Origin: Thaumarchaeota archaeon UBA164
GTDB taxonomy: Archaea; Thermoproteota; Nitrososphaeria; Conexivisphaerales; UBA164
Reading direction: 5' to 3'
Assembly: GCA_002499005.1 (NCBI GenBank)
Contig: DAJU01000010.1
Location: forward strand, 73,750 to 137,749
DNA: 64,000 bases
Shown here: piece after piece, positions 15,444 through 62,049 of the stretch
Numbering within the stretch: position 1 is the stretch's first letter
How the letters are laid out: each line of letters starts with the position of its first letter
The notes under the pieces: generated by a model
Database searches by the model: none
What the model was told of the DNA's origin: nothing
Seen by the model: the letters and a program-made list of their open reading frames with translations, nothing else
Translations under genes and position numbers: made by a program

Positions 15444-15911
15444 CGCTGATAAGCTGTCGTTTATTTCCTAGTGCACAAGAATGGCCTTAATGGCATAAAA
15501 CGGCTGCAACATAAGAACCTCCGCATTCATGCAGGCCCGTAGCCAATAAAGACATAACTGGCTTCTCGCTTTGGCTTTGCAGCCGCTCTTATTCCCAGCC
15601 TATACATAACAGCCCGTATTTGAGGCCCTTGAGCATCAGATCCAACTGACTTGTCTGCAAATTACAACTCAGCACCTTAAAGTTAGGAAGCACTGAAACT
15701 TAATAATGAATTATTTGCCTGCGATAAAAAGTTTAGCACTGTTTCTGCTAACATAAAAGTCAACGTGGATGCCTTTTGGCCTTTCTGCATGAGCCTTCAT
15801 CCATACTTACCTCCTAGCCCTAGAGGGTTAGATTTCCCTCAGGACGAAGAGGTTCCCCGATCCGCTCGGGCTTCATCCCGGGCAATCGGGGCCAGAGGCC
15901 TCTCTATACTT

Positions 15912-16112
15912 TCAATGTTTGTATGCGGCGACATCCCTTTTCTCTTCAAAGCTACAGTTTGCGCACCTCATTTTCCTGCATTCGGCCTCGATCAGCTTTA
16001 AGCCGCAGACTGGACATATTAATGAGGAATAGGCGGGACCCGTTACCTTCACCGGAACCCCGTGCTTATGATCAAGACAGCCCATCCAGTGCTCAAGCCT
16101 CCTGTTTAACAA
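15912..16112 (-). pseudogene. tnpB: remnant (C-terminal ~65 codons) of an IS200/IS605-family TnpB (OrfB) gene
   Basis: HGVPVKVTGPAYSSLICPVCGLKLIEAECRKMRCANCSFEEKRDVAAYKH matches the TnpB tail (VdP.yTSq.C..CG....R.f.C..CGf..dRDvNAA). About 1 kb of N-terminal coding is missing, since only 147 nt separate it from the next gene. Confidence 0.65.
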
Positions 16113-16113
16113 A

Positions 16114-16188
16114 CTGTGAAGGGCGTTAGCGAGTTAACCTTCATCTCACGGTCAAGGTTAGCGCTCCCCTCATTAATGCCCTTCACAG
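16114..16188. other. 75-nt nested inverted repeat (perfect 11-bp outer stem)
   Basis: CTGTGAAGGGC (16114-16124) and GCCCTTCACAG (16178-16188) are perfect reverse complements. The spacer holds an inner near-palindrome (GTTAACCT ... AGGTTAGC) and a direct GTTAGCG duplication. Confidence 0.7.
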
Positions 16189-16190
16189 CC

Positions 16191-16241
16191 AAAAAAGAAT
16201 AAAATAAAAATAAACGCTTTGCCCTGCCTCAAAAAGGCGGG
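16191..16241 (-). terminator. hairpin plus T-rich tract downstream of the vps4 operon
   Basis: On the minus strand, CCCGCC-TTTTTGA-GGCAGG (one G.U) is followed by GTTTATTTTTATTTTATTCTTTTTT, starting about 20 nt after the 77-codon ORF stop. Confidence 0.45.
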
Positions 16242-16259
16242 ACTTGCCTTTGCTATTTT

Positions 16260-16493
16260 TCAATAGGGCCCTTTTTCACCTTTGCAGTAGACAACGCCCT
16301 TGTATCTTCTTATAAATGAAGGACACAGATAGCATGCTATAAAAGGCACCTGCTGATTGATGACAGGGCATTCCACGTACTCCTTCTTCATATTTGAAAC
16401 AAGCCTGTTTCCTATTCCCCTTAGCTCGTTTAATTTTTCATCTGGAACTTTGAGCGCGCGGTTTGACTTCTTTATTTCAACTTGAAATTCCAA
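16260..16493 (-). CDS. small Cys-rich hypothetical protein downstream of vps4
   Basis: 77 codons from a TTG start, or 42 aa from internal ATG MKKEYVEC. Cys pattern C-x11-C-x2-C-x12-C. Same strand, 19 nt after vps4. No family recognised. Confidence 0.35.
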   Translation of the reverse strand: MEFQVEIKKSNRALKVPDEKLNELRGIGNRLVSNMKKEYVECPVINQQVPFIACYLCPSFIRRYKGVVYCKGEKGPY

Positions 16494-34530: not shown

Positions 34531-34589
34531 ATGAACGCCAGCTTAAACGGTTTATGCACAATTTATGGGTTCCTCATCGCCTGGTACCA

Positions 34590-34917
34590 GCTTCTTCCGC
34601 AGCGCAGGGGACATATGGGCTGACGCTAAGGGCCGTTATGTCACCCCTTAAGGCGCTTCTATTCCCTGCTTTATCTGGCTTTAAACAACATCAAGTTGCT
34701 CTTTATGACATACGCCCTTGGCTTTTTTATTTTTGCAGCCAACAGCAGAAGACCATTTCAAGCTACCGCGTAGCCTGTGAACCATCTCTCTTCAGGGAAC
34801 AGCCATTAAGTGACAACCATTCCTAGCGCCTTTGTCTGCCGCAAAGGCACAGTTTTAGTTGGCCCGGCCTAAGAAGCGCCGGCCCGCGGTGAACTGCAAG
34901 GCCTTTCTTCTGAACAA
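34590..34917 (+). repeat. copy A of a ~328-bp dispersed non-coding element (MITE-like or ncRNA candidate)
   Basis: Collinear with 58835-59163, with 6 substitutions and one T-run indel. Sharp similarity boundaries. Internal hairpins 34601-34657 and 34828-34848. T6AT5 tract 34723-34734. Confidence 0.9.
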
Positions 34918-35194
34918 GTGCACTTATAGGCCAAATGGCTGCGGCCTATTTAAATGCCAGCGTGGCTTGTCAACCACGCGCTTAGGGCGTCAATTAGAAC
35001 ACCTTACCGGCTTATGCGAAATACCACTTACACAAATAAATCAAAAAACAACGATTTGAGCTTGATGCTGGCTAAATTAATTTTACTCCGGGAAGTACGG
35101 GCTTTTGCCGTAGTCGGCTCAGTGCTCAAGATCTTAATCATTAAATCATCTGGGCCACACATCATTGCCAAGCATTAATTAAATATTAATTAAT

Positions 35195-36337
35195 TTATTT
35201 CCTTTCCTGCAAAGGAATGTATTTCCTTTCCTGCGGTCCCACATAAACTGCACGTGGCCGTATTAGCCTGTGCTGCTCCTCTACGTATTCAATAAAATGC
35301 GCCGTCCAACCAGTGACCCTTGAAAGCGCGAATAAGGCGGTGTATATGTTATTCTGAAGCGGAAAGCCTAGAGCCATGTAGACTATACCTGAGTAAAAGT
35401 CTGTATTTGGATAGATGCCCCTTGGCCCAAATTTATTAACCCCAAGTTTCTCAAGCTTCGTTGCTATTTCATAAAGGTTCTTTGCCTCACCTGTAAGGCC
35501 TATGTTCTCTGCTATTGACTTGAATATCTTTGCGCGTGGATCATAGGTCTTGTAGACCCTATGGCCGAAGCCCATAAGCCTTTTTTTACCGGAGTCTATG
35601 TTCTCCTTGAACCAGCTTTCAACCATGTCAGGGCTTCCTATTTCCTTGAACTGCATAGCTGCGGCCTCTGCGGCCCCACCATGCAACGGCCCCTTCAGCG
35701 CGGCAAGGGCTCCGGCAACACCAGAGTACATATCCGCCATTGTTGAGACAACCACAAGGCCTGCTGTGGTGGATGCAGGGACCTCATGGTCCAGATAAAG
35801 TATTAACGCCGTATTAAGCGCTGCGACGGCCCTTTCTGATGGCTCACTGTCAAATACTGCGCTTAAGAAGCTTCTTGCAAGGCTGTCTGAGCTTTTGAGC
35901 TTTACAGGCTCTTTGCCAAGGACATGCCTTATGCCTGTTGCAGTTATTGATGCCATCTGCCCTATCAGCTTTGCAGCATAATCTCTGTTTGTCGCCTTAT
36001 CCCACTTGAACGGCTCCGTTGCAGCAAGAGCCGCTATTGCGTTCATTTGAAGGGCAACTACATCAGATGATCGCGGGAGGTTAGTTATAGCGTTTAAGAC
36101 GTAATCAGGGACGTCGTATCCTGCCTCAATCTTTTCCCTGAACAGGTCCAGCTGGGATCTGTTGGGAAGTTCTCCGTTAAGAAACAGATACTGTATTTCC
36201 TCAGCCAATGCGCCAGCGTTAATTATGTCCTCTATTTGATAGCCCGAGTACCTGAGTATCCCCTTTTCTCCATCTATTGTAGTTAGCTTTGTCCATTTGA
36301 TATTTACGTCCTCTAAGCCCTTGCTTATGCTTTCCAT
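35195..36337 (-). CDS. gltA: citrate synthase
   Basis: 380 aa. LHGGA, GFGHRVYK and DPRA motifs. Confidence 0.92.
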   Translation of the reverse strand: MESISKGLEDVNIKWTKLTTIDGEKGILRYSGYQIEDIINAGALAEEIQYLFLNGELPNRSQLDLFREKIEAGYDVPDYVLNAITNLPRSSDVVALQMNAIAALAATEPFKWDKATNRDYAAKLIGQMASITATGIRHVLGKEPVKLKSSDSLARSFLSAVFDSEPSERAVAALNTALILYLDHEVPASTTAGLVVVSTMADMYSGVAGALAALKGPLHGGAAEAAAMQFKEIGSPDMVESWFKENIDSGKKRLMGFGHRVYKTYDPRAKIFKSIAENIGLTGEAKNLYEIATKLEKLGVNKFGPRGIYPNTDFYSGIVYMALGFPLQNNIYTALFALSRVTGWTAHFIEYVEEQHRLIRPRAVYVGPQERKYIPLQERK

Positions 36338-36520
36338 GTTCCCTCGCCTTTTAGACTATTGACAAAAATTGGCATGTGTATAGAAAGCTTTATAATTTTT
36401 CTCATTTTTGGGTCGTGCGTTTATTTATTTATAGATAATATAAGCGTTTCTTTTTTCATCTTTGTGAATAATACAGAATCATCCTGAACCAGTGACAGCA
36501 ATAACTTAAAATACTAACAA

Positions 36521-37243
36521 TTGTTGATCCCAGATATGCCTTTGCATATAAAGGCGGAGCCAAGCGAAGTGGCGGAGACGGCTATACTCGTATCCGAGCC
36601 AGAGCATTCAACGGCAATCTCAAAGATTCTTAAATCACCAAAGCTTGTGAATGAAAACAGAGGCTATCTTACCTATACAGGGCTTTATAATGATAAAGCG
36701 GTTACGGTGTCGGCGCATGGACTTGGTGGACCTTCTACCTCAATAGTGATTGAAGAGCTGGTCCAATTAGGTGTTAAAAGCATGATAAATATAGGAACCG
36801 CGCTTAGCTTATCTGAGACCCTTAAGCCTGGCGATCTGTTGCTGCCAACTGCAGCATCTTACATGCCAGGAGGCACTATTGGAGAATATGTACCTCAGGG
36901 CTACATAACGCTTTCCGCAACTCCTTCTTTTGAGCTTCTTTTAATGGCATACGACGCGCTTAACACAGCCGGGGTTAAGCCAATAACAGGGCCCGTTTTC
37001 AGCAGCGACATGAATTCTCTTGACGCTGATCTTATAGAAGAACTGAAAAGGCTAAAGATTCTGGCTGCTGACATGGAAACGGCAACTGTGTTTGGGCTTT
37101 CACTTATAAGGGGCATCCGCGCCGCTGGCGTTTTAATAATAGTGGGGGACGCCCAAAGAGGGCCTTTATTAAAAAAGGAAGAAATTGTGAATAAAATTTC
37201 CAACGTCGCAAGTTACCTAATTGCAGCCCTCAGCCAGCCCTGA
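36521..37243 (+). CDS. PNP/UDP-family nucleoside phosphorylase (DeoD/MTAP/uridine phosphorylase type)
   Basis: 240 aa. VSAHGLGGPSTSIVIEEL, NIGTA, AADMETA. TTG start. Confidence 0.8.
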   Translation: MLIPDMPLHIKAEPSEVAETAILVSEPEHSTAISKILKSPKLVNENRGYLTYTGLYNDKAVTVSAHGLGGPSTSIVIEELVQLGVKSMINIGTALSLSETLKPGDLLLPTAASYMPGGTIGEYVPQGYITLSATPSFELLLMAYDALNTAGVKPITGPVFSSDMNSLDADLIEELKRLKILAADMETATVFGLSLIRGIRAAGVLIIVGDAQRGPLLKKEEIVNKISNVASYLIAALSQP

Positions 37244-37318
37244 TATTTCGCCAGTAAAAACGTGTTATCAAACGTGTTAGCCTGTTTAGAAAGACCTGTC
37301 TAATGCTGCTTACTTCTT

Positions 37319-37345
37319 CCCCGCCTCAAAGAGGCGGGGCTTTTT
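37319..37345 (+). terminator. intrinsic-terminator-like hairpin plus T tract
   Basis: CCCCGCCTC-AAA-GAGGCGGGG (perfect 9-bp stem) followed by CTTTTT, 76 nt after the phosphorylase stop. Confidence 0.5.
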
Positions 37346-37376
37346 GCCCACCCTTCTGTAAAAACAGTTAGCGCAG

Positions 37377-38378
37377 CTACTTCAACGGATCTGCAAGCCC
37401 CTTTGCTAAAAGATAAACAGCCGCAGACAAAGGCAAAGTTACATCCTCCTGTTTAAACGGGCCGTACCAAGTTCCCTTTATATAAAACCTTGGAGCATAA
37501 ATCACCCTTACCTTTGTGGGCTCATCTGGAAGCATAACGCAGCTTGTCAGCGGGTCACATTCCTGAACATCATCGCACCTGCACTTTGTTATTCCGCTTT
37601 CATCATGAAGACTTCCAGGGAGCCTGAAAACCCTTTTTATATCCATTGTTACGTTTGGGTCTATGGCCACTCTTTCGACGGCTCTGTCATATAAAAGAGA
37701 TGTGTTTGGCGTGTTTGCTTCAAACCGCTTGCTGTCATACCCATTAAGCGTTAAATAGTCTATTATTTCTGCCCTTTCTCTCTGGCTAAGCGTTATTATC
37801 TCTCTAGAATTTACATGAACATGAAATCCATGATCTCCTGAAAAATAAACCGTTATGTCTCGGTTTGAAAAACCAAACCTTTCCGTCAATACGCTAACGA
37901 GCAATGCGGTAGCCGCCTTGACGTCAGCCATGCATTTATCACATACCCATTCCGTTTCAATGATGGACTGAGAGCCGCATTTTGGGCATGCCGGCGGTCC
38001 CTTGCCAGCTCCAATTTCGCCGCATATGCCGCAAACCCAAAACGTGTTCTCCCTGGCTGCTTCGCTAACGTCCTTCATGTCCAAGTCAAAAACTAGATCG
38101 CTCCCTTCCCATCCTTTTATATCCATTGGAGCCGTTGGATCCTTATAGTAGGCCACTGAGCTGTAAATGGATCTCGGCACATTTCTTATAATATATGCCA
38201 GGAGTTCACCTCTGTTCCTAAACTGCATATGTCTTATCATGCTTCCTGAAAAGTCTTTAAACCCAAACTCCCTTTTGCTTATTTCAAAAGGTTCCTCTAT
38301 AACGCTGCTTCGATTAAAGTAATACCATCTGTAAGCTGACTTAAGAAGCTGCAGGCGTGGAGTTTCCGACATACTCAT
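37377..38378 (-). CDS. priS: DNA primase small (catalytic) subunit PriS
   Basis: 333 aa. Catalytic VFDLDMKD, FSGDHGFHVHV, Zn knuckle CGICG...CPKCG. Confidence 0.88.
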   Translation of the reverse strand: MSMSETPRLQLLKSAYRWYYFNRSSVIEEPFEISKREFGFKDFSGSMIRHMQFRNRGELLAYIIRNVPRSIYSSVAYYKDPTAPMDIKGWEGSDLVFDLDMKDVSEAARENTFWVCGICGEIGAGKGPPACPKCGSQSIIETEWVCDKCMADVKAATALLVSVLTERFGFSNRDITVYFSGDHGFHVHVNSREIITLSQRERAEIIDYLTLNGYDSKRFEANTPNTSLLYDRAVERVAIDPNVTMDIKRVFRLPGSLHDESGITKCRCDDVQECDPLTSCVMLPDEPTKVRVIYAPRFYIKGTWYGPFKQEDVTLPLSAAVYLLAKGLADPLK

Positions 38379-40539
38379 AGATCAGGACCTGTGCCCATAT
38401 TCCATTTGACGTAATGCTCAAAGGTGACGCGTAAACAAGCCTGAACGGGGTTGAATTGGTGCCGTAATATATGTTATACGCCCAAACTGGCAACTGGTAA
38501 AGGCCTGTATTGTTTAACTGGTTTTGGGTTATCCCAACTACCTGACCCGTTGAGGGATCGATCTGTGCCCATCCAAGGTACTGCAAAGGTTCAAGCCTCC
38601 CAAGCAATGTATCATTCCAGAAGTATGGAGTTAAAAGCCCAGTTGACTTGTTTATCCATACCGATTCGTTGTTTGTCCATCCAGCCCACACAAGCATGGC
38701 GCTTACCTTGCTTTCATCGCCTCCAATTCCGTAAAGCTCACCTGAAAGCTGGTAACCCTGAAGGTACTGGTCACCTGTTAATAAGTTAGCATAGGCTCCG
38801 GTTGCAAATACCACAACGTACTGCCCGTGAAGCATCTTGAAGTAATGTATTGCCTGGTTAGGAGGCGAGAGGAACATTTTGGCCACGAGGCCAATTTGCG
38901 TTCCGTTAAGCGTTGCGTTATCAACAACCGTGGTCTGGTTGCCCATTACAGTTATCCAGTAGCCGTAGTCCCACCAAGCTACGACAACTGAATGAGGTGG
39001 CATATTAGAGGAGTTTGACATCCACTTTAGCGCGTCTATCCAAGCTGGCACATATCCGTTAAGTATTGTTGCTGAATTTGCTATGGTTACTGGTGAATTA
39101 TTTGCAGGGTACCAGTAATATATTGGGACCGCCGCTAACGATATAAGAAAAGCCGCAGCGGCATATTTTTCAGCCCTGTAGCCTATGGATGGGCCTTTAG
39201 GCGCAGGCTGCCGCGCTTTCTTTTTTACAGGCCGCGCCGCTGCTGGAGCTGGGGCTATTGATGTATAAACATAATATACCCCAATGGGCGCGCCGATTAT
39301 TATCGCCATGCCTATAAAGTCAAGAAGCTCCCCAAAAGCAGATCCTATGTAGAAGCTCCATATGAGAAGTATTGCTGTAGCTAAAGACCCTATGGTTTTC
39401 TTTTTAATCAGATAATAGCCGCCTAGCGCGGTTAAAAGCGCTCCAAACCCGTACATAAAGTCCAGCTCAAGTCCAGAAACTGGAAGTTGCTCTGCAACCG
39501 TGCTTACCACGCTTGGCTTTGTCCTTATGAACAGGTCAATTACAGAGAGATACCGCAGGTTAACCAGCTTTGGCAGAAAATAAGCTATGCCAGCAAGGCC
39601 TCCAATACCAAGCACGAAGAGAATGGCATATAGCGCAGGCTGTGGCATTATCTTCTTTTCCTGATTTATATAGGCCAGCGCGTTTAATATCAACGAAAGA
39701 TAAAGAAGCAGCATGGTCGCTGAATAGATCCAGGAACGACCAGGGTCTGGAAATATGGCCGCTACCATTGCCCCTATCGTGTAAAGCAATTCAAGCGAAA
39801 TCGTCTTTCTGCTTATCTTTATAAGAAGTGGAGCCGCAAGAAATGCGAGACCAATAACCCCGTTAATGTTCTCTGCGCCTCCCCAGACAGTATACGAATA
39901 ACCTACCACAAGGCCCGCTAAAAGCGATAGCGCATAAGGATATTTGTCTTTGTCAAAGGCATAAATTAAAAGCATGAATGCTAATGGCATAAGAAGAAAG
40001 TCGAGAGGCGTTCCCTTGTACCACCCAAAGTCAGTTCTGGTTATCAGGCCTGGTATGCCAAGGCTTAACACGGCAACCAGTAGTCCAATGTACTTGTTGC
40101 CTGTTAAGGATTTTACAATGAAGTACATTGGTATTAATGCTATTATCCCCTCGAAAATAGGGAGAACAACCACAAAGTTGTAAAGCGAAATCTTGAGTCC
40201 GATCCCGCTTACCAGCAAGTAAAGCGTTGCGGTAAAAAAGTAAAGGCCGTCTGGAGATGTGGTAGCTATGTGTCTTCCCCAAGGATACCAAAAGTAAGGT
40301 GACACATAGCTAAAGAATTTCCCTATGCCTGAAAGGCCGTACTGCTGAAGAAAGCTTACCAGCACGCTTGTCGCATAATAGTGGTAAAATGGGTCAAATT
40401 CATTTAAATAGACCCCATACTTGGCGGGCATGAGCCTTATGTATATGTTTGCTGCTAGCAAAGCTGCAAACGTAATGATTGCCAGTGAGTCAGCGAGGCT
40501 GAGACGCGGCCAGTGAATCCTTGGGTTTACTGTGGCCAT
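38341..40539 (-). CDS. aglB: oligosaccharyltransferase AglB (STT3 family)
   Basis: 732 aa, about 13 N-terminal TM helices, WWDYGYW catalytic motif. 3' end overlaps the priS start by 38 nt. Confidence 0.9.
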   Translation of the reverse strand: MATVNPRIHWPRLSLADSLAIITFAALLAANIYIRLMPAKYGVYLNEFDPFYHYYATSVLVSFLQQYGLSGIGKFFSYVSPYFWYPWGRHIATTSPDGLYFFTATLYLLVSGIGLKISLYNFVVVLPIFEGIIALIPMYFIVKSLTGNKYIGLLVAVLSLGIPGLITRTDFGWYKGTPLDFLLMPLAFMLLIYAFDKDKYPYALSLLAGLVVGYSYTVWGGAENINGVIGLAFLAAPLLIKISRKTISLELLYTIGAMVAAIFPDPGRSWIYSATMLLLYLSLILNALAYINQEKKIMPQPALYAILFVLGIGGLAGIAYFLPKLVNLRYLSVIDLFIRTKPSVVSTVAEQLPVSGLELDFMYGFGALLTALGGYYLIKKKTIGSLATAILLIWSFYIGSAFGELLDFIGMAIIIGAPIGVYYVYTSIAPAPAAARPVKKKARQPAPKGPSIGYRAEKYAAAAFLISLAAVPIYYWYPANNSPVTIANSATILNGYVPAWIDALKWMSNSSNMPPHSVVVAWWDYGYWITVMGNQTTVVDNATLNGTQIGLVAKMFLSPPNQAIHYFKMLHGQYVVVFATGAYANLLTGDQYLQGYQLSGELYGIGGDESKVSAMLVWAGWTNNESVWINKSTGLLTPYFWNDTLLGRLEPLQYLGWAQIDPSTGQVVGITQNQLNNTGLYQLPVWAYNIYYGTNSTPFRLVYASPLSITSNGIWAQVLIYEYVGNSTPAAS

Positions 40540-40638
40540 TGAGTAGAGGTATTAATCCCATTTATTTTTATCCTTTTGCTTTTTTATAAGGGAATGCCAG
40601 TGCGAATGGTTTTAAGCCTGTGTCATGTAAATACCCTT

Positions 40639-41196
40639 ATGGAGGACATAATAAACATGATAAAGGAAGCCCTTCAGGCTGAGCTTGAAAATGATGGCCT
40701 GACCGAGCTTCCGCAGGACTTTTACGGGATAGCAGCGCTCAGGATAAAGCAGCTAAGGCTTTATGAGCTCACCGGCGTTTCCGACGATGTTAAGGAGGCC
40801 GCTAAGGGCCTAAGGGAACTTCTTGTCAGCATGATCTTTGACCTTATAGACCTGCGGGCAAAAAAGATGCTTGATGAATGCCTGAAAAGGGGAATCCCTC
40901 AGACGGACGTTTATGAGAGGCCGCTTGCAGAAGCGCTTGCCAGGTTTTTGAAGGAAGTGGATTTGCTAAAGGGGGCTGTTCTTGAAGGCAACGTAAAGGA
41001 CCTTCAGGATAGGTACAGGTCTTACAGGTCTGGCTACAGGCTTGTTAGATTTAACGCTGGCATAGATAGGTTTGTGGGAATAGACCTGGTTGAGTATGGG
41101 CCATTTGAACAGGGCGACGTTGTAGTTATGCCGTTTGAAAATGCGAAAACGTTAATAGAGAAGAAGATTGTTGAGGACTTGGGAGGCGTGCAATGA
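40639..41196 (+). CDS. GINS subunit (Gins15/Gins51 type)
   Basis: About 185 aa from ATG 40639 (ORF is open from TTG 40576). LQAELENDGLTELPQDFYGIAALRIKQL fits the GINS A-domain start. Lies immediately upstream of L44e-S27e-aIF2alpha and near priS, as reported for Sulfolobus gins15. Confidence 0.55.
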   Translation: MEDIINMIKEALQAELENDGLTELPQDFYGIAALRIKQLRLYELTGVSDDVKEAAKGLRELLVSMIFDLIDLRAKKMLDECLKRGIPQTDVYERPLAEALARFLKEVDLLKGAVLEGNVKDLQDRYRSYRSGYRLVRFNAGIDRFVGIDLVEYGPFEQGDVVVMPFENAKTLIEKKIVEDLGGVQ

Positions 41197-41483
41197 AGAT
41201 ACCGGACTTGATAAATACATACTGCCCTAAGTGCAAGAAGTATACTCAGCATGAGGTGTCCATATACAAGAAGGGCAAAGAAAGGTCGATGAGCCTGGGC
41301 GCAAGGTATCACGAAAAGGTAAAACATGGGTACGGAGGACAAAAATACCCGGAGCTTAAAAGAACAGCAAAGACAACAAAGAAGGTTACGCTTAAGCTCA
41401 AGTGTAAGGAGTGCGGCTATGTTATAGTGAAGGAAGGCATGAGACTAAGGAAGACGGAAATGGTTGAAAGCGTTAAGAGGTGA
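41193..41483 (+). CDS. rpl44e: 50S ribosomal protein L44e
   Basis: 96 aa. YCPKCKKYTQHEV...LKCKECGY Zn-ribbon, GGQKYP. Confidence 0.92.
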   Translation: MKIPDLINTYCPKCKKYTQHEVSIYKKGKERSMSLGARYHEKVKHGYGGQKYPELKRTAKTTKKVTLKLKCKECGYVIVKEGMRLRKTEMVESVKR

Positions 41484-41488
41484 AATAG

Positions 41489-41686
41489 ATGCCAATTATA
41501 AAGGATTTAATAATACAGCCAAGGAGCGCCTTCTTGGTGGTTCAGTGCCCAAAGTGCGGAACAGAAAAAATTCTGTTTTCACACACTACGCGCGAGATAA
41601 AATGTGAAAACTGCGGTGAAGTTTTGACCAAACCAACAGGCGGTAAGGCGGTCATTTACGGCAAGATAGTAAGGAGACTGGATTGA
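41489..41686 (+). CDS. rps27e: 30S ribosomal protein S27e
   Basis: 65 aa. FLVVQCPKCG...IKCENCGEVLTKPTGGKA. Confidence 0.92.
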   Translation: MPIIKDLIIQPRSAFLVVQCPKCGTEKILFSHTTREIKCENCGEVLTKPTGGKAVIYGKIVRRLD

Positions 41687-42447
41687 TAAGCTCACAGGGC
41701 TTTCCAGAAACCGGGGAAGTTGTCCTAGCGACTGTAGAGTCTGTCAGCCCATCTGGAGCCTGGGTTACCCTAGATGAGTACGGAGGGCTTAGGGCGTTTC
41801 TCCCTGAGAGTGAAGTATCCAGAGGCAGAGCCCGGTCAATTGACAGAATACTAAAGCCGAAGCAGAAGGTTATAGTGAAGGTTACAAACGTCGATCAGGC
41901 TAGGAGAATAGTGGACGTTTCAATCAAGCAACTAACTCAGGAGGAGGAAAGGCTCAAAAGGATCGAGGTTAAGAAGTCAAGGTGGGCTGAAAGCCTTTTT
42001 AACATAGCTGCGCAAAAGCTTGGAATAAAGGACGTTGATTCCCAAATAAAGCTGGTTCTAAAAAAATATGAAAGCCTTTACGATGCTGTTGAGGCGCTGC
42101 TAAACAAAGGCGCAGATGAATTTGTGGCTCTTGGTATTAACAGAAAGCTTGCTGAAGAAATATATGAACTGGCAAAGGAAAGGTTTGCTCAACAAAAGGT
42201 GTCAATTGTTAAAACTCTTGAAATATACAGCCCCGAGCCAGACGGAATAGAGGTTGTAAAAAGCTCCCTGATAAGCGCAATTTCAGCGCTTCCAGCGGGT
42301 TCAGCAAAGGTCACATATGTCAGCTCTCCAAAGTACAGGCTAGAGATCCTTGCGGACGATTATAAGGCCGCTGAGAAACTTCTTAAAAGGTTTGAGGAAG
42401 AGGTAGAAAGGGCCGGAAGCGGAAAGGTCCTATACAGGATACTTTGA
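41683..42447 (+). CDS. eif2a: translation initiation factor aIF-2 alpha subunit
   Basis: 254 aa. N-terminal S1 domain (PETGEVVLATVESVSPSGAWVTLDEYGGLRAFLPESEVS), helical and alpha-beta C-domains. Confidence 0.9.
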   Translation: MISSQGFPETGEVVLATVESVSPSGAWVTLDEYGGLRAFLPESEVSRGRARSIDRILKPKQKVIVKVTNVDQARRIVDVSIKQLTQEEERLKRIEVKKSRWAESLFNIAAQKLGIKDVDSQIKLVLKKYESLYDAVEALLNKGADEFVALGINRKLAEEIYELAKERFAQQKVSIVKTLEIYSPEPDGIEVVKSSLISAISALPAGSAKVTYVSSPKYRLEILADDYKAAEKLLKRFEEEVERAGSGKVLYRIL

Positions 42448-42456
42448 TTTGTGAAG

Positions 42457-42612
42457 ATGAAAAAGTATATAAGAAAATGCGTTTCCTGCGGCAGATATAC
42501 TATGAAAGAGACTTGCCCTGTATGCGGCGCGCCTACAAAGAGCGCACATCCCCCACCTTTTTCACCTGATGATAAGTACCTGAAGTACAGGCTCAGCCCT
42601 GCTGAACCTTAA
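42457..42612 (+). CDS. nop10: H/ACA RNP protein Nop10
   Basis: 51 aa, below the ORF-track cutoff: MKKYIRKCVSCGRYTMKETCPVCGAPTKSAHPPPFSPDDKYLKYRLSPAEP*. Canonical position after aIF2alpha. Confidence 0.88.
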   Translation: MKKYIRKCVSCGRYTMKETCPVCGAPTKSAHPPPFSPDDKYLKYRLSPAEP

Positions 42613-42627
42613 ACTGACTTCGCGCCA

Positions 42628-42981
42628 TTAATGGCGAGGCTTTCTGCTCACATTAAAGTAAACTCCCAGCGCAGTAGCAACGGTTATGCCGTTCTGTTCA
42701 GCCCTTGCCTCTGCGTAAGCAAGGTTTTTGCCGTACCAGATGGCCTTTGCTTCAGCAACGAGCGGCCCTTCCTTTGCAGGCTGCACGAAGTTTACTGAAA
42801 TGCTGGATGTTACGTACCCCTTAAACAGGGTGCCCATGGCTACGTCTAAAATAGCCGTAATCACCGCGCCATGAACTATGCCGTATTTGTTAAGGTGCCG
42901 CCTATCGCACAAAAGCTCAGCCTTCCCTTCGCCAGCCTTTATCCCTATTTCTTCGCTAAACATATTTAGACCGGCCTGCAA
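42628..42981 (-). CDS. PaaI-type hotdog-fold thioesterase
   Basis: 117 aa. LNKYGIVHGAVITAILDVAMG matches the N..G.vHGG....l.D motif. Confidence 0.7.
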   Translation of the reverse strand: MQAGLNMFSEEIGIKAGEGKAELLCDRRHLNKYGIVHGAVITAILDVAMGTLFKGYVTSSISVNFVQPAKEGPLVAEAKAIWYGKNLAYAEARAEQNGITVATALGVYFNVSRKPRH

Positions 42982-58683: not shown

Positions 58684-58834
58684 TACGTAATATATTTGTA
58701 TTGATGGGGATTTATATGTTATCCTGTTTGTGATGCGTCGTCCTTAAATTTATTGCAGTTTGGGCGAGCTTCCAATAGCTTGCGAGTGAGCTACCCTTCA
58801 TATAGACTGCTTGCGGCGTTACAAACCGCTGCAG

Positions 58835-59163
58835 GCTTCTTCCGCAGCGCAGGGGACATATGGGCTGACGCTAAGGGCCGTTATGTCATCCCTTAAGGCG
58901 CTTCTATTCCCTGCTTTATCTGGCTTTAAACAACATCAAGTTGCTCTTTATGACATACGCCCTTGGCTTTTTTTATTTTTGCAGCCAACAGCAGAAGACC
59001 ATTTCAAGCTACTGCGTAGCCTGTGAACCATATCTCTTCAGGGAACAGCCCTTCAGTGACAACCATTCCTAGCGCCTTTGTCTGCCGCAAAGGCACCGTT
59101 TTAGTTGGCCCGGCCTAAGAAGCGCCGGCCCGCGGTGAACTGCAAGGCCTTTCTTCTGAACAA
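58835..59163 (+). repeat. copy B of the ~328-bp dispersed non-coding element
   Basis: Collinear with 34590-34917 in the same orientation. Hairpins 58846-58902, 59074-59094, 59110-59128. T7AT5 tract 58968-58980. Sits in the divergent CBS / topA intergenic region. Confidence 0.9.
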
Positions 59164-59226
59164 ACACATGAAACAATTACAAGCACGGCAATTAACGTTA
59201 AATTTTGGAAAGGACAAGCGATAGCG

Positions 59227-61513: not shown

Positions 61514-62049
61514 TTAGCATTCCCCTTTCATTCCTTTTGGCAGGCCTATGCCGCTCTGGCCCAGGTACGCCCCAGAGTATGAGGCCTTGCCCTCTGCCCT
61601 TACCAAAATTACGTGTAAAAACCTCATGCCGCGCCTTAATATAATGTAGTTCTTGCTGTTGTTTATTATCTCTATAGTTACGTTACCTGAAAATCCTGCA
61701 TCTATGACGGTGGGGCTGATGCTGAGCCCGTACCTGGCAAGCGTCGACCTCAGGTTGCAAAAGCCAACCAAGTCATAAGGAAGCTCCACGCGTTCCATCG
61801 TGGTTAAAAGCACAAACGAATTCGGCGGAACAGGTATAATTCCGTCTTGCGAATCGTTTACATGGAAAAGCGCCTCCGAGCTGCTGAGATCGCATGGATC
61901 AACGGTTTGACCAGAGATCGAATATGTCGCGTACTGAGCACCTATTCTGAGATCGACGCCGTTCTCCCTTATCGTAGACTTGCTAAGCGGGTCTATTTTC
62001 AGCCTTTGGACATTTCGTTTATAATAGCGTCGTGTGAAAGAACGCCCAT
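61514..62049 (-). pseudogene. dcd: dCTP deaminase (Dcd/dUTPase fold) interrupted by a 1-nt frame change after codon 16
   Basis: 62049-61999 encodes MGVLSHDAIINEMSKG then TGA. From 62002, in the -1 frame, it reads LKIDPLSKSTIRENGVDLRIG...PPNSFVLLTTMERVELP...VIDAGFSGNVTIEIIN... to the stop at 61514. Joined, this is a typical 178-aa Dcd. No start codon exists in the long frame upstream of GTG 61813. Confidence 0.8.

Follow-up and report, generated by a model that had tools for sequence, protein, structure and literature searches.

The 64,000-nt stretch of DNA analysed here (the window; positions 73,750 to 137,749 of contig DAJU01000010.1, assembly GCA_002499005.1, Thaumarchaeota archaeon UBA164) carries a non-coding element of about 330 nt in two nearly identical copies, which raises the question of what this element is and how it came to stand at two places. 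Copy A occupies positions 34590..34917 (328 nt, delimited by alignment and self-BLASTN) and copy B positions 58835..59163 (329 nt). Both have the same orientation, and the minus strand is the proposed functional (top, transcribed) strand of each. A sequence-only reading of the window had described the element either as a non-autonomous derivative of IS200/IS605 insertion sequences (IS) or as a duplicated gene for a structured non-coding RNA (ncRNA). The observations reported below support a non-coding element with sharp limits and a recent insertion. What it represents is probably a small piece of mobile DNA that makes a folded RNA from its minus strand. The family is not fixed, since only two copies are known and several defining features are undecided.

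Copies, boundaries and empty sites

Aligned by MAFFT together with 100 nt of flank, and likewise in self-BLASTN, the copies are collinear, lie on the same strand and share 97.9% identity across 329 columns. Six substitutions (C/T, C/T, C/A, A/C, A/C and A/C) and one T in a T-run separate them; A/C transversions make up four of the six, too few to interpret. The identity begins at GCTTCTTCCG and ends at CTGAACAA, and both edges are sharp. The four flanks show no relation to one another, to the element or to the region of a TnpB remnant described below (Smith-Waterman comparison against shuffles, all z-scores, z, below 2.3), which rules out the edge of a larger segmental duplication. The pair is the sole repeat in the window at E<=1e-5 (self-BLASTN). 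The copies are ~24 kb apart in direct orientation, with a minus-strand gene start downstream of each (ATG at 60 nt from A and at 152 nt from B), and the GC content of the element is 51% as compared with 30-49% in every other intergenic region of at least 60 nt in the window. The collinear arrangement with its seven differences, the abrupt limits with unrelated flanks and the location just upstream of minus-strand gene starts had all been described in the sequence-only reading, and all of them hold.

Logan contigs built from two independent read sets (SRR5036737 and SRR1297186) match the window with 100% identity. At the left ends of both A and B they break off precisely 30 nt (k-1) into the element, and one contig of 23,977 nt runs from the last 30 nt of A through the first 30 nt of B, so that contig ends lie 30 nt inside the element at three junctions. 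A de Bruijn graph is broken in this way by a true repeat with different flanks. As both assemblies branch exactly at the element ends, the repeat is real, and an assembly artefact, named beforehand as one way in which the finding could fall, is ruled out. The 24 kb between the copies were also considered as an integrated element; this was rejected, the interval holding housekeeping genes syntenic with those of relatives.

Two contig ends were examined as a possible third copy and set aside. The far end of Logan contig SRR5036737_11 is the 3' end of a tRNA, and the contig starting at 61646 lies inside a truncated dcd-like open reading frame (ORF). In both Logan assemblies there is a break at the final 30 nt of a tRNA gene (ggttcaaatccaccccccgct; L012 1-30, ~4.4 kb left of the window start), so the 3' end of this tRNA should recur elsewhere, as it would at an integrated element's attachment site. 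The ORF at 61514-61813 is dCTP-deaminase-like (99 aa), lacks its N-terminal part and lies beside a gene-free gap of 375 nt; the start of the SRR1297186 contig within it suggests a partial gene duplicate or a strain variant.

The element codes for no protein. All of its reading frames are broken or differ between A and B, and the ORFs lying over the copies (34554..34826 and 58811..59026) diverge past the indel, from which the sequence-only reading had already concluded, correctly, that they are not coding. The stop-free peptides of the element have no Pfam match. The plus-strand frame of 78 aa, the only long one, has no relative among 5.8 billion clusters and none in a phmmer search against 1.84 billion representatives, and the 34-aa ORF of the minus strand, looked up exactly, gave no match. 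A minus-frame peptide (…CHKEQLDVV*) bearing a faint likeness to the C-terminus of TnpB was tried as a relic of that protein and rejected, BLASTP giving no alignment.

Judged by its proteins, the host is a Conexivisphaerales-like thaumarchaeon. The best relatives of the neighbouring proteins belong to metagenome-assembled genomes of Conexivisphaerales/Nitrososphaeria (64-74% identity, closer ones up to 77%), and the window's own proteins are singletons. The closest sampled relatives of the two loci are Logan assemblies, L008 for site A and L009 for site B. L008 has the gene order of site A (citrate synthase with 87% aa identity, a gene of 84 aa and histidyl-tRNA synthetase), and in L009 the topoisomerase gene and the CBS gene (90% aa) are divergent as at site B. 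Neither site contains the element in the relative: the spacer is 122 nt in L008 versus 664 nt in the window at site A, and 160 nt in L009 versus 543 nt at site B. In BLASTN alignments the lineage-specific stretch of site A (34548..35115, 568 nt) is opposed by 17 nt in L008, and the unaligned stretch of site B (58730..59221, 492 nt), which contains copy B, by 94 nt in L009. This comparison shows that the element entered two intergenic sites after the split of the lineage from its nearest sampled relatives. The coding flanks of the relatives have 69-79% DNA identity to the window as against 97.9% between A and B, and the copies are therefore far younger than the species split.

The surroundings of site A show some features of their own. 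A likely C/D-box small RNA (sRNA) gene is found directly after the citrate synthase stop (35113-35171, minus strand), with a terminal stem GGC/GCC, C box AUGAUGU, C' box AUGAUUA and D box CUGA; unlike the adjoining spacer it is kept in L008 (~1443-1507), and it is not recognised by Rfam. A match to the C/D-box RNA sR49 between A and the 84-aa gene (34537-34581, minus strand) was set aside as probably due to chance, with 17.7 bits against a gathering threshold of 50, E=0.58 and non-canonical boxes. The gene order in 35195-42981 differs from that of another relative (L007, 77% identity), in which citrate synthase is followed by 4HBT thioesterase, GINS, L44e, S27e and eIF2-alpha. This rearrangement predates the element, since L008 has the gene order of the window.

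The search for further copies was extended well beyond the window. No third copy was found by self-BLASTN (word size 7) and nhmmer in the window and 14 fetched loci, by two exact patterns in the JGI metagenomes, by four patterns in IMG/VR or by BLASTN in distant mode in plasmids and phages. Among 185,579 species-representative genomes, the exact 21-mer of the hairpin GCCTTTG-7-CAAAGGC gave just three chance bacterial matches. A wider search had been suggested as a way to more copies; the databases and related loci searched hold none beyond A and B.

A folded RNA on the minus strand

The two strands of the element behave differently when folded as RNA and compared with shuffles. The minus strand of the whole copy A gives z of -2.5 to -2.7 and the plus strand -0.2 to -0.3; the values for the whole copy B are -2.2 and -0.7, respectively. 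The central domain of 143 nt (minus strand, 34660..34802) reaches z -4.56 in A, and its counterpart in B (minus strand, 58905..59048) reaches z -4.53, with none of 200 shuffles as good in either case. The plus strand of this domain is ordinary (z -1.35). In the predicted fold a 9-bp closing helix (UGUUCCCUG/CAGGGAAUA) encloses three hairpins, and several of the pairs are G.U. Since the central segment had been picked from the predicted fold, a composition-corrected energy was computed for all 143-nt windows of the 64 kb, on either strand; the domain falls into the top 0.15% (A) and the top 0.05% (B) of all of them, and its plus strand does not stand out. Comparably strong folding occurs elsewhere in the window in two regions only, 15751-15900 (minus strand) and 16101-16250. 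These statistics show that the minus strand is structured, strand-specific and RNA-type, and that the plus strand is not.

In the central domain of copy B, two substitutions and one indel are located in loops or at unpaired positions. All seven variable positions of the two copies are unpaired in the alifold consensus, which is weak evidence, as two sequences were compared and the method avoids broken pairs. The single indel site is a T6AT5 tract (A 34723..34734, B 58968-58980). This tract and the perfect 7-bp hairpin GCCTTTG-7-CAAAGGC (A 34828..34848, B 59074-59094) were found where the sequence-only reading had placed them. The terminator role that it had suggested as possible for the tract does not apply to the minus strand, on which the tract is the A-rich loop (13-14 nt) of a predicted UUGGCU/AGCCAA hairpin. 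As the minus strand has no oligo-T terminator, transcripts would run from the element toward the downstream genes.

The strength of the fold favours the idea of a duplicated structured ncRNA that had been offered as the alternative, with the amendment that the structure is on the minus strand. In its pure form this idea is a free-standing structured ncRNA gene (~330 nt or its 143-nt core) in two recent paralogues, transcribed on the minus strand from promoters in the flanks and having a cellular role of its own, e.g. as a regulatory leader or a trans-acting RNA. Besides the minus-strand-specific structure it accommodates the GC content of 51%, above that of other intergenic DNA, the unpaired state of 7/7 variable positions in the two-sequence consensus fold, and the run-on into downstream genes expected of a minus strand lacking an oligo-T terminator. 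By inspection, a consensus TTTAAATA box (34947-34954, minus strand) stands ~30 nt upstream of the minus-strand start of A, and AT-rich boxes are similarly placed at B; these promoter-like boxes are, however, not conserved between the copies. Moreover, relatives whose proteins are 87-90% identical lack the element at the syntenic sites, and its base-precise edges at a new locus demand some copying mechanism. The covariance model of the central domain, run with filters off, finds no further match in the window and 65 kb of related loci. Rfam 15 gives no match on either copy even at E<=10. A self-standing ncRNA gene is therefore an unlikely answer, although it overlaps with the best explanation given below.

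The Rfam result itself is uninformative as to omegaRNA, the guide RNA type of TnpB, because Rfam has no family that recognises even the tail of the window's own TnpB remnant. That remnant, the presence of which had been claimed and is borne out, is located at 15912-16112 (minus strand; Pfam PF07282, E=1.3e-10) and consists only of the C-terminal 66 aa with the zinc ribbon. It indicates that the IS200/IS605 family was once present in this genome. Behind it lies a GC-rich tail (15751-15900, minus strand) which folds with z -4.1 into a closing helix and three hairpins and is probably the omegaRNA, or right end, of a decayed IS605-type element. The strongest-folding segment of the whole window (16101-16250, plus strand, z -5.8) sits exactly at the cut-off of the tnpB frame. 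It comprises a near-perfect hairpin of 74 nt (CTGTGAAGGGC...GCCCTTCACAG), an A-rich run and a second hairpin, and could be either a small hairpin element inserted in the IS or the terminator region of a 77-aa gene (16260-16493).

Ends, junctions and mode of insertion

A repeat search of the element detected no terminal inverted repeats (TIRs) between GCTTCTTCCG... and ...CTTCTGAACAA. No direct repeat that could be a target-site duplication (TSD) occurs across either copy, the flanks being CGCCTGGTACCA and GTGCACTTATAG for one copy and AAACCGCTGCAG and ACACATGAAACA for the other. The lack of both had been stated in the sequence-only reading and is upheld. The ends of a related IS would be expected to match TTGTTCAGAAG... 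and ...GCGGAAGAAGC.

Each end contains a hairpin. The long imperfect one (AGCGC / GGGG-GACAT ... ATGTC-CCCC / GCGCT; minus strand, A 34601..34657, B 58846-58902) is the candidate right-end hairpin with its foot 11 nt from the minus-strand 3' end; a G>A change in B weakens one of its pairs. The candidate left-end hairpin is the GC-rich GGGCCGGCG-CUUCUUA-GGCCGGGCC (minus strand, A 34861..34885, B 59107-59131), which starts 32 nt from the minus-strand 5' end. In the plus-strand reading the stem CCGGC-9-GCCGG is at 34864-34882, 35 nt from the 3' end. The loop GCUUCUU of the left hairpin is complementary to AAGAAGC at the minus-strand 3' terminus. Each minus-strand terminus bears the motif AGAAG, as does the foot of the right hairpin, and the loop of the left hairpin contains the complement of this motif; altogether AGAAG/CTTCT occurs five times in the element, which is in the top 1.2% of 328-nt windows and is suggestive only.

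Such an arrangement is reminiscent of palindrome-associated transposable elements (PATEs). First described in Haloquadratum walsbyi, these have no inverted repeats and no duplications but near-terminal palindromes, of which the 5' one is further from the end (PMC3119063). They were seen in Geobacillus stearothermophilus too and often carry omegaRNAs, which TnpB must use in trans (PMC10055086), so that the ncRNA and PATE readings are compatible. The asymmetry of the hairpin distances is also that of IS608, which is cleaved 19 nt to the 5' side of its left hairpin and 10 nt to the 3' side of its right hairpin (PMC3201880). Among archaeal IS, the IS200/IS605 family is the most common (PMC13343696).

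Our best explanation, to which we give slightly less than an even chance, is that the element is mobile but non-autonomous, young and low in copy number, lacks TIRs and TSDs and has the minus strand as its working strand. Among mobile elements, an IS200/IS605-type PATE with an omegaRNA-like scaffold seems the most likely by analogy, though as a specific mechanism it is tentative and somewhat doubtful. According to it, the element would leave and enter DNA as a single-stranded circle of the top strand, and an HUH/Y1 TnpA made elsewhere in the genome would cut and rejoin this circle via the subterminal hairpins, the left-end one 32 nt from the minus-strand 5' end and the right-end one 11 nt from the 3' end. 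Transcription of the 3' two-thirds of the element (the central four-way domain and the right-end hairpin) would yield an omegaRNA-like scaffold that reads into the flank and could serve a TnpB supplied in trans. If so, this would point to recent IS200/IS605-type activity in a little-studied thermoacidophilic thaumarchaeal lineage, and to a possible trans-acting TnpB guide with a new RNA scaffold that has no sequence relatives.

A number of observations weigh against this explanation. The two end hairpins, although located as had been claimed, are as single-stranded DNA (ssDNA) no stabler than dinucleotide shuffles (z -0.4 to -1.0; right hairpin -0.4), and they are unlike each other. The 4 nt located 5' of the minus-strand start differ between the copies (GCAC versus GTGT), giving no shared target motif; in this comparison of two copies a common target is possible only if the initial TTGT(T) of the repeat belongs to the flank. 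Guide/cleavage-site pairing of the IS608 style is not evident by inspection under the published rule (PMC3201880). Neither the TnpB remnant nor its tail or C-terminal peptide resembles the element (Smith-Waterman, covariance model and BLASTP), and the window's ORF lists, looked over without a systematic screen, showed no tnpA. Only two copies came from the searches made, and the boundaries rest on these two sequences. Furthermore, the lineage-specific DNA extends beyond the element: ~240 nt (198 + 42) at A (34918-35115 and 34548-34589) and 100-160 nt at B (58730-58834 and 59164-59221) are single-copy, unrelated to each other and not explained by clean insertion.

Finally, perfect palindromes of 6-8 nt form three of the four flanks at the junctions (TGGTACCA and CTGCAG on the left, GTGCAC on the right), for which the probability of chance occurrence, estimated after the fact, is ~1e-5 to 3e-5. 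At copy A the palindromes reach 10 nt by taking in one or two bases of the element. With the junction marked by a slash, they are CTGGTACCA/G at the left end (34581..34590, flank part TGGTACCA) and AA/GTGCACTT at the right end (34916..34925, flank part GTGCAC). At copy B the CTGCAG palindrome belongs to a flank hairpin of 8 bp (CTGC-GCGG ... CCGC-GCAG, 58807..58834) that ends exactly at the left junction, and the region including this flank folds as ssDNA with z -2.4. The palindromes could point to insertion directed by structure, or else to a second copy that arose by replication stalling and template switching; none of the insertion mechanisms considered explains them at three junctions. The extra DNA at site A, for its part, contains a 7-bp hairpin (ATAGGCC...GGCCTAT) just past the 34916..34925 palindrome, the TTTAAATA box and a T-rich terminator-like run (35030-35047, minus strand).

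Template switching needs no mobility machinery. A lineage-specific intergenic piece of 328 nt might have been copied once, 24 kb away, by this process or by illegitimate recombination at hairpins. Palindromes and hairpins stall replication forks and promote template switching, and here 3/4 junction flanks are palindromic, one of them being a hairpin that ends at the junction. The only two known copies are close together and in direct orientation, both lie within larger lineage-specific blocks either of which could be the source, and no family members appeared in any database searched. Nevertheless, the source copy is missing from the relative as well and still needs an origin. No microhomology is seen at the junctions, the copied stretch coincides with a structured unit complete in itself, not with a random piece, and the terminal AGAAG motifs with the loop complement suggest defined ends. 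We consider a one-off duplication rather unlikely, though the likeliest of the rivals. If it did occur, the practical weight of the element would go no further than being a 328-bp direct repeat around 24 kb of housekeeping genes, which is a substrate for deletion, and breaking short-read assemblies.

The defined ends and the palindromes may also be taken together. In that case the element would represent a new type of non-autonomous mobile unit of Conexivisphaerales-like archaea, namely a mobile structured-RNA gene (~330 nt, four-way-junction core) that has neither TIRs nor TSDs, requires no particular target sequence and inserts where short palindromes or hairpins have their foot. A structure-directed, HUH-like or RNA-guided partner outside the rules of IS200/IS605 and IS110 would recognise the ends via AGAAG and the complementary loop. 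This we hold to be improbable. Should the abutting palindromes reflect a true targeting rule, an undescribed insertion mechanism would be indicated.

Comparison with known systems

Classical archaeal MITEs (transposable elements of miniature size with inverted repeats; e.g. SM1-SM4 of Sulfolobus) have TIRs matching those of DDE-type IS and usually TSDs. The present element resembles them in being short (within the MITE size range), non-coding, intergenic in both copies and repeated. It differs in that TIRs and TSDs were looked for and both are absent, the termini not being inverted repeats. A DDE-transposase MITE can be grouped with a segmental-duplication edge and an assembly artefact, to which the abrupt end of similarity on both sides, the absence of a duplicated flank of any length, the seven differences between the copies and the agreement of two read sets on the junctions are adverse. 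An explanation from this group is extremely unlikely.

Elements of the IS110/IS1111 families likewise have neither TIRs nor TSDs, their insertions often fall within palindromes, and the structured RNA might be imagined as a bridge-RNA-like guide of a non-autonomous derivative. The likeness extends to the junctions abutting palindromes, to an element-encoded structured RNA with internal loops and to the GCUUCUU loop complementary to one terminus. A single RNA guide, however, should pick similar targets, whereas the insertion sites are unrelated in sequence: the joined empty sites of A and B match at 7/21 positions (counted by eye), which is the chance level, and the junctions have no common core dinucleotide. 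Nor did a DEDD recombinase stand out in the window's ORF lists, again not screened systematically. We regard this origin as very unlikely. Also tried by eye were a 2-bp core of serine recombinases, a tyrosine-recombinase core (an imperfect TTCTTCYG direct repeat near both ends) and the end rules of IS91/Helitron elements; none of them fits both copies.

With PATEs the agreement is closer, but the specific assignment to them made in the sequence-only reading is not established. The element differs from PATEs by its number of known copies (two), by hairpins that are dissimilar and statistically unremarkable, by the absence of a visible conserved target oligonucleotide in the copies and of a related IS605-type element in the searches, and by the palindromic junction flanks, which the IS200/IS605 mechanism does not predict. 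On these points, as in the missing third copy and the missing likeness to the TnpB remnant, the assignment found no support. The element agrees with PATEs in having no TIRs or TSDs and in the placing of its candidate near-terminal palindromes, the 5' one of which is further in (32 versus 11 nt in the minus orientation), as well as in lineage-specific insertion, seen from the empty sites of the relatives, and in high identity between copies.

The last comparison is with the omegaRNA of TnpB (reRNA, at the right end of IS200/IS605 and IS607 elements). In contrast to it, the element has no adjacent tnpB gene and no similarity to the tail of the window's remnant in sequence or by covariance model. 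What they have in common is a structured strand-specific RNA near the end of an element free of TIRs and TSDs, with the structure on the strand that reads out into the flank, transcription being predicted in the present case. The fold statistics and the overall shape of the domain, moreover, resemble those of the tail behind the TnpB remnant.

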